Made by a program: the position numbers and the translations under genes. From contig NC_000909.1 in NCBI RefSeq assembly GCF_000091665.1, positions 325,539 to 353,579 of the forward strand: a stretch of DNA of 28,041 bases. The letters run 5' to 3'. This document shows, one piece after another, positions 17,702 to 18,367 of this stretch; position 1 is the stretch's first letter; every line of letters starts with the position of its first letter. Source of the stretch: Methanocaldococcus jannaschii DSM 2661 (GTDB taxonomy: Archaea; AGJL01; Methanococci; Methanococcales; Methanocaldococcaceae). The notes beneath the pieces were generated by a model. The model had not been told where the DNA came from, did no database searches, and saw nothing but the letters and a program-made list of their open reading frames with translations.

Positions 17702-18214
17702 ATGGAAAATTATTTGGAAGAAGAGCTTATAATTGGAGGTATTGAGATAAACTATCTCTATGTATGTAAGACAAAGCTTTGGTATTTTGTTAGAGGCATA
17801 ACTATGGAGCAAGAAAGTGATTTTGTTGATTTAGGAAAATTTTTACATGAAAAAAGTTATTTTGGAGAGGAGAAGGAAGTTCAGATAGGTAGTATAAAAA
17901 TTGATTTTATTAAAAAGCGTGATGTCATTGAGATTCATGAGGTAAAGAGGGGCAAACAGATGGAGAAAGCCCATATAATGCAGGTATTGTATTACATCTA
18001 TTATTTAAACAGTTTAGGAATAAAATCTAAGGCAATCCTTCATTATCCAAAACTTAAGGAGATTAAAGAGATTGAGTTAAAAGAAAATAACAAAGAGGAA
18101 ATAAAAAGAGCAATAAAAGAGATTGAATACATAAAATCATTAAAAGAACCACCAGAGCCTATTTATCAGAAGATTTGCAAGAATTGTGCTTATTATGAAT
18201 TATGTTTTATTTAG
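17702..18214 (+). CDS. cas4: Cas4 (RecB-like nuclease with a 4-Cys cluster)
   Basis: N-terminal Cys (YVCKTKLWY), RecB motif IEIHEVK, QVLYY, and C-terminal [10 protein letters not shown]. Confidence 0.88.
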
Positions 18215-18317
18215 AATTTTATGTTACTTCGAAGATACGTCAAAAGTGAGCTAAGAGGCATTGCTTCTGCAAAGAAGCAATGCATCCTGGGTATCCCAAT
18301 AGGGCGAAGCCCTATGG
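18215..18317 (+). other. GC-rich ~100-nt insert with two strong hairpins between cas4 and cas1; candidate structured ncRNA or MITE-like insertion
   Basis: Hairpin 1 at 18258-18283 is GCATTGCTTC-TGCAAA-GAAGCAATGC (10-bp perfect stem). Hairpin 2 at 18299-18315 is ATAGGGC-GAA-GCCCTAT. Local GC is clearly above the AT-rich background. Confidence 0.45.
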
Positions 18318-18367
18318 TATCAGAAAATCTGCAAAATTGTGCTTATTATGAGTTATGTTTTATTTAA
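18318..18367 (+). pseudogene. Decayed duplicate of the cas4 3' end
   Basis: TATCAGAAAATCTGCAAAATTGTGCTTATTATGAGTTATGTTTTATTTAA parallels cas4 18164-18214. It still encodes [10 protein letters not shown]-stop in one frame, but a 1-nt deletion breaks the link to YQKICK. Confidence 0.7.

Follow-up and report, generated by a model that had tools for sequence, protein, structure and literature searches.

Background

Repetitive extragenic palindromes (REPs) and bacterial interspersed mosaic elements (BIMEs) are GC-rich imperfect palindromes dispersed among the spacers of bacterial genomes, and no archaeal REP families are reported in two studies of these elements (Nunvar et al. 2010, PMC2817692; Di Nocera et al. 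2013, PMC3733652). Here we describe an insert between cas4 and cas1, two genes of the CRISPR (clustered regularly interspaced short palindromic repeat) system, in the hyperthermophilic archaeon Methanocaldococcus jannaschii DSM 2661. The insert contains a module of two hairpin units, designated A-type and B-type, and is enclosed by two copies of the gene junction in which it lies. From its anatomy and its relatives, the module is very probably one copy of a dispersed and so far undescribed GC-rich structured family in Methanocaldococcaceae. The stretch analysed, called the window throughout, comprises 28,041 nt of contig NC_000909.1 (positions 325,539-353,579, forward strand), and positions are given in window coordinates unless another locus is named.

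The likeness to REPs and BIMEs extends to several features. The module is made of short GC-rich imperfect palindromes that fold into hairpins; like REPs and BIMEs, it is found in spacers of co-directional genes, with B-type units in both orientations in one cluster, and would form intercistronic RNA hairpins that could plausibly tune differential expression within an operon. In place of the GTAG/CGTC tag of bacterial REPs, however, its flanks are CTAAGAGG...TGCATCC (A-type) and (G)TATnCCAATAG...CTATGG (B-type). Its host is a hyperthermophilic archaeon, and it is flanked by a duplication of at least 63 nt, whereas REP insertion makes no target duplication. No REP-associated tyrosine transposase (RAYT) was identified in association with the module, no search aimed at RAYT having been made. 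Overall, the element fits best as a new REP/BIME-like structured repeat of archaea, lying within a gene junction that has been duplicated.

Other described processes leave arrangements that partly resemble this one. Integration at tRNA 3' ends keeps the target gene intact and leaves a direct repeat of its 3' end on either side of the insert, as is seen here; it differs in that the present repeat continues across the downstream spacer into the start of the following gene, and that the insert is non-coding and about 70-100 nt long. Neither an integrase nor an episomal form was found for this insert, either within it or in PLSDB, INPHARED and IMG/VR. Non-canonical (ectopic) spacer integration by Cas1-Cas2, on which Nivala and colleagues reportedly published in 2018, is said to give target duplications the size of a CRISPR repeat. 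It has in common with our loci a duplicated target around an insert beside CRISPR-cas genes and, in M. indicus, the dimensions (33 nt and 39 nt), but in the window both duplication and insert are much longer and the target has no similarity to a repeat. Template switching of the fork stalling and template switching or microhomology-mediated break-induced replication type (FoSTeS/MMBIR) yields tandem duplications with a templated insertion. Here, too, a contiguous segment stands in tandem, the piece at the joint has copies elsewhere and there is possible microhomology (TATCAGA; ATGAG in M. indicus). The junction differs in having been hit recurrently, as M. indicus attests, whereas we know of no recurrence of such events at one gene junction, and in that a scan with a 20-mer from hairpin 1 found no donor in the same genome.

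Results and discussion

The cas4-cas1 junction is duplicated around an insert

The features of the junction, all on the + strand, are as follows.

17702-18214, +: cas4, intact, 170 amino acids (Pfam Cas_Cas4, E 1.4e-58)
18164-18214, +: copy 1, the functional cas4 3' end with its stop codon and three cluster cysteines (sequence repeat)
18215-18245, +: decayed continuation of copy 1, comprising the former spacer without GGTG, a pseudo-ATG (18221) and what remains of the cas1 5' end (homology with sister lineages)
18246-18291, +: A-type hairpin unit (covariance model R2, compensatory changes)
18290-18321, +: B-type hairpin unit (conservation among lineages; paralogous copies in M. bathoardescens)
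18318-18367, +: copy 2, or relic, a cas4 3' end with a 1-nt deletion in M. jannaschii (sequence repeat)
18368-18379, +: functional cas4-cas1 spacer with the ribosome-binding site GGTGA (sequence; arranged as in empty sites)
18380-19348, +: cas1, intact, 322 amino acids (Pfam Cas_Cas1, E 7.8e-85)

The starting point was an initial annotation, made from the sequence alone, that the last 51 nt of cas4 (18164-18214) occur again at 18318-18367, and this recurrence is borne out. The two copies differ by G>A, T>C, the loss of one G, A>G and TAG>TAA, all five at third-codon positions, so that the three substitutions and one single-nucleotide deletion first counted are correct as far as the stop codon. 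A repeat search recovered the duplicated cas4 end with a 32-nt core of 97% identity and no second repeat comparable to it in the 28-kb window, confirming that the duplication is real and beyond a chance match. The roughly 100 nt of intervening DNA are also present, as an insert of 103 nt, and copy 2 does end 12 nt before the cas1 ATG, with GGTGA lying within those 12 nt.

The duplication reaches beyond cas4. In the metagenomic type L016, which carries the same arrangement, the 22 nt past the cas4 stop codon (GCGATTGTTATGAAGTAATCTA) align with the corresponding junction of L017, a relative without insert (GGTGATTGTTATGAGGAAGAAATCT), at a score of 26, as against 8.5 ± 2.8 for shuffled sequences, none of 3000 of which scored as high. 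In L013, a metagenome-assembled genome (MAG) of Methanocaldococcus, 37 nt past the stop align with its own spacer and cas1 5' end (p = 0.02). The corresponding stretch of the window gives p = 0.46, the copy being too decayed to show homology. The pseudo-start has lost its GGTG ribosome site in each of the three lineages. Judged from these alignments, the duplicated unit is shown to be the junction itself, from the terminal 51 nt of cas4, through the spacer and its ribosome site, to the cas1 start codon at least. A duplication that covers the spacer and the cas1 start indicates a duplicated target rather than a cas4 end carried in by an element; of the two origins initially considered, duplication is therefore favoured over an insertion bringing its own replacement for the cas4 terminus. 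Since the upstream copy supplies the cas4 end and the downstream copy the cas1 start, both genes survived.

In M. jannaschii an open reading frame (ORF) of 48 codons (18221-18367) begins 7 nt past the cas4 stop and ends 12 nt before cas1. It exists in this genome only, because of the 1-nt deletion in copy 2, and might in principle re-establish translational coupling with cas1. A conserved small ORF at this position was considered and rejected: it is kept in neither L013 nor L016, where the ATG at the position of 18221 meets a stop after 5 and 2 codons, respectively.

Empty and filled junctions among relatives

The junctions of relatives were gathered through Cas4 homologues (120 found), their contigs and a metagenome locus search, and fall into the following groups.

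Empty, named genomes: Methanocaldococcus sp. 10A (L007), Methanocaldococcus sp. 28A (L008), M. bathoardescens (L009)
Empty, metagenome contigs: L010, L017, L018, L019, L034
Empty, more distant (Thermococcales-like and other relatives): cas4-cas1 gaps of -20 to +39 nt
Filled, with a duplicated junction around an insert: the window; Methanocaldococcus MAG L013; the vent-metagenome type L016, L020 and L028

At the eight related Methanocaldococcus loci the empty site consists of the cas4 stop, 9-10 nt and the cas1 ATG, which supports the tightly coupled ancestral cas4-cas1 arrangement proposed at the outset. Identity among the three filled lineages is about 90% in cas4 and cas1 but only 72-79% at fourfold-degenerate sites; a filled site common to lineages this diverged is an old and retained structure, not an accident of one strain. 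Trees of cas1 and cas4 are star-like with low support, fitting either an empty ancestral state or empty sites produced by loss between the direct repeats, and this phylogeny does not decide between single and multiple origins of the filled site.

One metagenome variant, L028, has an additional GC-rich insert of 299 nt (L028 283-581) that splits the module at a GG. Part of this insert is 82% identical to the 3' end of a TnpB-like gene from an IS607-family element on plasmid pFS01 (NC_013888, 11526-11593), and it is likely an IS607/TnpB-derived miniature element.

The insert carries a covarying hairpin module

The unique core of the insert (about 18246-18321) has 50% GC against 31% for the window, placing it in the top 0.6% of 66-nt windows, and folds as two hairpins (fold z = -3.5). 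The A-type unit has an 11-bp stem (18258-18283) with a GCAA loop, between the conserved flanks CTAAGAGG and TGCATCC. The B-type unit, CCAATAGGGCGAAGCCCTATGG, can be read as GGTATC, a CCA bulge, ATAGGGC-GAA-GCCCTAT and GGTATC, and its 3' strand extends into the first bases of copy 2. Across copies its consensus is (G)TATnCCAATAG-Gn-C-GNA-G-Cn-CTATGG, with stem length varying in a matched way on both strands.

Evidence for base pairing in the A-type unit comes from its stem variants, which are fully compensated (GCATTGCT/AGCAATGC, GCACTGCC/GGCGGTGC, GCACTACC/GGTAGTGC, CACCTCC/GGAGGTG). Over seven copies there are compensatory changes in 6 of 12 pairs and 96% of cells are paired, and none of 500 shuffles attained the covariation score. 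The apex in most copies is a tandem G.A step with GC/GC pairs and a GNA or GNRA loop, the window copy having a plain GCAA tetraloop, and all loops match G-N(-N)-A (GAA, GCA, GTA, GCAA, GTAA). The module has a defined polarity, A-type hairpin followed by B-type, which here is that of cas4 and cas1. For the A-type unit, covariance model R2 strongly favours the + strand (58.7 bits, against 19.1 for the - strand), and in all four variants the + strand folds slightly better than the - strand.

The module is also conserved. Among filled lineages 35-37 of 38 positions are identical in the B-unit (HP2) region, more than the 72-79% of fourfold-degenerate sites (p = 5e-5 to 7.5e-3). The adjoining pseudo-start segment, a local benchmark for unconstrained sequence, evolves fast: the window and L013 are identical at 25 of 33 positions, and L016 is not alignable.

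Several identities for the hairpins were considered and set aside. Hairpin 1 is unlikely to be an operator for Csa3, because its symmetric compensatory changes point to base pairing and not to half-site recognition. Inspected by eye, the module lacks the bulges or boxes required of a bulge-helix-bulge intron, K-turn, C/D or H/ACA small RNA, hammerhead or group II domain V. Derivation of the core from the cas1 5' region was likewise rejected for lack of significant similarity. The 'CTAAGAG' that could be taken for a cas1 remnant belongs to the conserved flank of the A-type unit.

A dispersed family of related modules

A covariance model built on the window module (R1) was used to find related modules, and the following copies were recovered outside the cas4-cas1 junction.

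M. bathoardescens, in the stretch separating the CRISPR array's trailer end from cas2: family copy (R1 match)
Methanotorris igneus, between array and cas2: two family copies (R1, 43.5 and 32.8 bits)
Methanotorris igneus, in an unrelated spacer: family copy (R1, 40 bits)
M. bathoardescens, between selU and a rhodanese gene: B-type unit

One cluster holds B-type units in both orientations. Rfam gave no relevant match to the window module (E up to 10) or to the other loci and paralogues (E up to 1), nor any at its gathering threshold. BLAST searches of the plasmids of PLSDB and the phages of INPHARED with the insert and the paralogue clusters returned chance matches only, and neither pattern scans for each of the two hairpins nor a Cas4 locus search found anything in IMG/VR. 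A six-frame search of module peptides against 5.8 billion proteins, intended to catch copies overlapped by ORFs, also returned nothing.

In M. igneus (L045 11847-12045) and M. bathoardescens (L041 11775-12110), module clusters lie just upstream of cas2, between a degenerate penultimate and a degenerate terminal CRISPR repeat, and fill a 'spacer slot' of more than usual size at the array's trailer end. The terminal repeat of M. igneus matches the consensus at 25 of 31 positions; the layout in M. bathoardescens is similar but weaker. A different, MITE-like repeat family (MITE, miniature inverted-repeat transposable element) is present at L045 17996-18313 and L043 19470-19740, with terminal inverted repeats TATAGTTGTGTGC...GCACACAACTATA and subterminal hairpins GGCAAAAC...GTTTTGCC, and one M. 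igneus copy of it encloses an A-type unit. On the leader side of arrays a conserved motif, AGGRGGMAyhTTTTsAAT, adjoins the first repeat (window 26932-26950, L043 19075-19095, L044 11913-11930); it is similar to the A-unit flank AAGAGGCA but lies on the other strand with respect to the direction in which the array is transcribed.

A family of this kind might simply be selfish, a REP/BIME- or MITE-like element moved in trans (for example by an IS200/IS605- or IS607-type enzyme) and devoid of local function, the duplication being a separate slippage event, earlier or later. The units are indeed multi-copy, short GC-rich palindromes, with B units in both orientations within a single cluster and one A unit enclosed by terminal inverted repeats of MITE-like kind, and the IS607/TnpB-related insert in the L028 module indicates a locus that draws mobile DNA. 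Yet the module has no terminal inverted repeats, no short target duplication of fixed length and none of the tag sequence of bacterial REPs, and its orthologous copies are far more conserved than neutral sites at about 10% divergence, unlike a dead selfish copy. Duplication followed by insertion exactly at the joint would, moreover, require two events and is less parsimonious than one. On balance we regard this explanation as unlikely.

Copy 2 is conserved and probably exchanges with functional cas4 ends

The downstream cas4 end had been taken for a decayed relic, a description that is not supported. Among filled lineages it is identical at 41-44 of 47 positions (87-94%), as against 72-79% at fourfold-degenerate sites (p = 2e-4, 0.11 and 0.013 in the comparisons), and 9 of its 10 variable sites fall at third-codon positions (p = 3.6e-4). 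It is in frame and intact in L013, and carries the 1-nt deletion in M. jannaschii and a CAG>TAG change in the L016 type. The initial annotation had named, as a finding that would tell against it, the same duplicated structure in related genomes with both copies under purifying selection; the shared structure is seen in relatives, and the constraint on copy 2 comes close to the remainder.

Copy 2 of the window agrees with states seen in empty-site relatives. By comparison, the synonymous haplotype AAG-ATT-AAG-GAA, present in no empty-site cas4, is found in copy 1 in the window and in copy 2 in the L016 type, and the L016 pseudo-start has an L017-type allele and not its own. The simplest reading of the haplotype swap and the L017-type allele is repeated exchange between copy 2 and functional cas4 ends.

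These same observations are what might be expected of a site-specific integrative element, in which a circle bearing its own cas4 3' end (attP) recombined with cas4 and was later deleted down to about 100 nt. The appearance of the haplotype in filled loci alone, in copy 1 or copy 2, could reflect different crossover points; the exclusively synonymous differences look as if both copies came from working genes; the foreign L016 allele would fit as well; and the window does have a genuine integrase, beside a fragment resembling a tRNA 3' half. The haplotype swap is, however, equally explained by gene conversion and recombination with empty-site strains. The 103-nt insert has no integrase or conserved ORF, the nearest integrase (7751-8743) being 9.4 kb away; the repeat is not confined to the cas4 3' end and reaches the cas1 start; no match was found among the plasmids, phages and viral sequences of PLSDB, INPHARED and IMG/VR; and the core belongs to a dispersed hairpin family with contexts other than cas4. 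The earlier suggestion that the logic of integration at tRNA 3' ends had here been applied to a cas gene is not supported, on these same grounds, and we consider an integrative origin very improbable.

An independent event in M. indicus

The cas4-cas1 junction of M. indicus (L044, CP186926; 10497-10601) carries a perfect direct duplication of 33 nt, ATGAGTTATGTTTTATATAAGTGAGATTATGAG, which spans the cas4 end and stop, the spacer and the cas1 ATGAG. The insert between the copies is 39 nt long (TTTCCAGAGCAGCTACAACTCTCCCCTGGATATACACCC), giving a start-to-start spacing of 72 nt; for comparison, the arrays of the window have repeats of 30-31 nt, spacers of 36-41 nt and a period of 66-71. Similarity between this insert and the module is not robust (best p = 0.014 among 8 tests), and the 39-mer has no match in IMG/VR.

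The dimensions in M. indicus raise the possibility of off-target integration by Cas1-Cas2(-Cas4), in which the junction would have been attacked like a repeat, foreign or module DNA inserted, the target duplicated by gap repair and a new repeat thereby seeded. Beyond the resemblance of 33 nt, 39 nt and a spacing of 72 to repeat and spacer, this explanation would account for two independent hits on one junction directly upstream of cas1, and it draws on the A-type units in the terminal 'spacer slot' of M. igneus and, more weakly, of M. bathoardescens. In the window, by contrast, a duplication of at least 63 nt and an insert of at least about 70 nt match neither repeat nor spacer sizes; the junction, compared by eye, is unlike a repeat or a leader-repeat boundary; the M. 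indicus 39-mer lacks a match in IMG/VR; and family copies also occur far from any array. We judge such an origin improbable, and would put slightly less trust still in the broader proposition that the cas4-cas1 boundary is a recurrent off-target site of the spacer-integration machinery, with at least two insertions, and that modules are unusual substrates of it, also captured in terminal 'spacer slots'. Were off-target integration to be correct, the loci would be natural snapshots of the seeding of a new repeat-spacer unit.

Entry and possible role of the module

The evidence shows that in an ancestor of the M. jannaschii-like lineage a stretch spanning the boundary of cas4 and cas1 was duplicated, with a module of the dispersed family, about 70 nt long, between the copies. 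To explain its entry we favour break-and-copy: through template switching, at replication or repair, or through the fill-in of widely staggered nicks, the module would have been copied from elsewhere in the genome and the target duplicated along with it. We infer this route because there is no enzyme signature, because the donor family is multi-copy and because there is possible microhomology: TATCAGA occurs at 18164 (cas4 -51), at 18318 (the start of copy 2) and at 18405 (cas1 +26), which is suggestive only. An integrase or classical transposase is a less likely means of entry, and break-and-copy is itself put forward tentatively.

Once the module was in place, selection would have maintained it in the form of a folded single strand, RNA within the cas transcript being the likeliest. 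Lying between cistrons, it would break the translational coupling of cas4 and cas1 and could act as an internal attenuator or stabiliser; a present function as an intercistronic folded RNA is possible, though we would not lean on it. Continued exchange with functional cas4 ends, whether gene conversion or recombination involving DNA that arrives from other strains, would keep copy 2 cas4-like, and this copy may also leave cas1 with its native upstream context. For the whole account, comprising the duplicated junction, the family module, break-and-copy entry and retention as a folded strand, our confidence is about evenly balanced.

A number of results weigh against this account. The duplication is not fixed at its right end, and the module core bears no significant similarity to the cas1 5' region (global p = 0.24, 0.06 and 0.43). 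Orthologous copies taken alone show weak covariation, with one compensatory pair and a score reached by 50 of 500 shuffles. The independent family loci number five, in three lineages, all within about 10 kb of cas4, and because every locus was fetched around cas4 no enrichment at cas genes can be claimed; module sites number about 3 in 76 kb of cas DNA and 2 in 52 kb of other DNA. A donor copy in the same genome was not found, the hairpin-1 20-mer scan of a genome collection yielding only the orthologous L013, and this 20-mer is a poor query because hairpin 1 varies. Finally, that one junction was hit by two independent events points to a targeted process, for which simple template switching offers no explanation.

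If the account is right, the locus is a natural case of a packed operon junction taking an insertion with neither gene lost: overlapping signals were duplicated and the redundant ribosome site was then silenced, and a junction of this kind was hit twice independently at the cas4-cas1 boundary. The covarying hairpin family may then represent the archaeal equivalent of REP/BIME elements, or else a structured RNA, and with module copies directly upstream of cas1 or cas2 in three genomes it might tune the expression of adaptation genes.

Other features of the window and related loci

A near-palindrome, TTACTTCGAAGATA, lies at 18224-18237, inside the decayed continuation of copy 1. Elsewhere in the window, between the divergent csa3 and csa5 promoters, is a perfect 14-bp palindrome, TTACTTCGAAGTAA (19994-20007), which has an exact 11-mer in common with TTACTTCGAAGATA (estimated chance about 0.015). 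The two could represent a shared operator; the near copy is not conserved in the L016 type.

The exact Cas4 protein of the window and its identical filled junction (L001-L006) were met on contigs of many unrelated public assemblies, in 35 index blocks spanning ENA, JGI and Logan. This suggests that sequencing data sets commonly contain DNA of M. jannaschii, perhaps used as a standard or present as a contaminant.

At 8899-8950 the window contains a GC-rich fragment resembling a tRNA 3' half, with a T-arm (CCTGGGTTCAAATCCCAGG), an acceptor strand and CCA. ARAGORN and Rfam called no tRNA there, and a tRNA scan of the whole window found none. The fragment lies 150 nt downstream of the tyrosine recombinase gene (7751-8743) and near an MCM gene (4324-6603), and may be an attachment-site (att) remnant of an integrated element.

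The first cas3 of the window (15507-17693) is without the N-terminal 52 or so residues of its L013 orthologue; the DNA upstream of it (from 15144) is AT-rich with stops in all frames, and the gene may be truncated.

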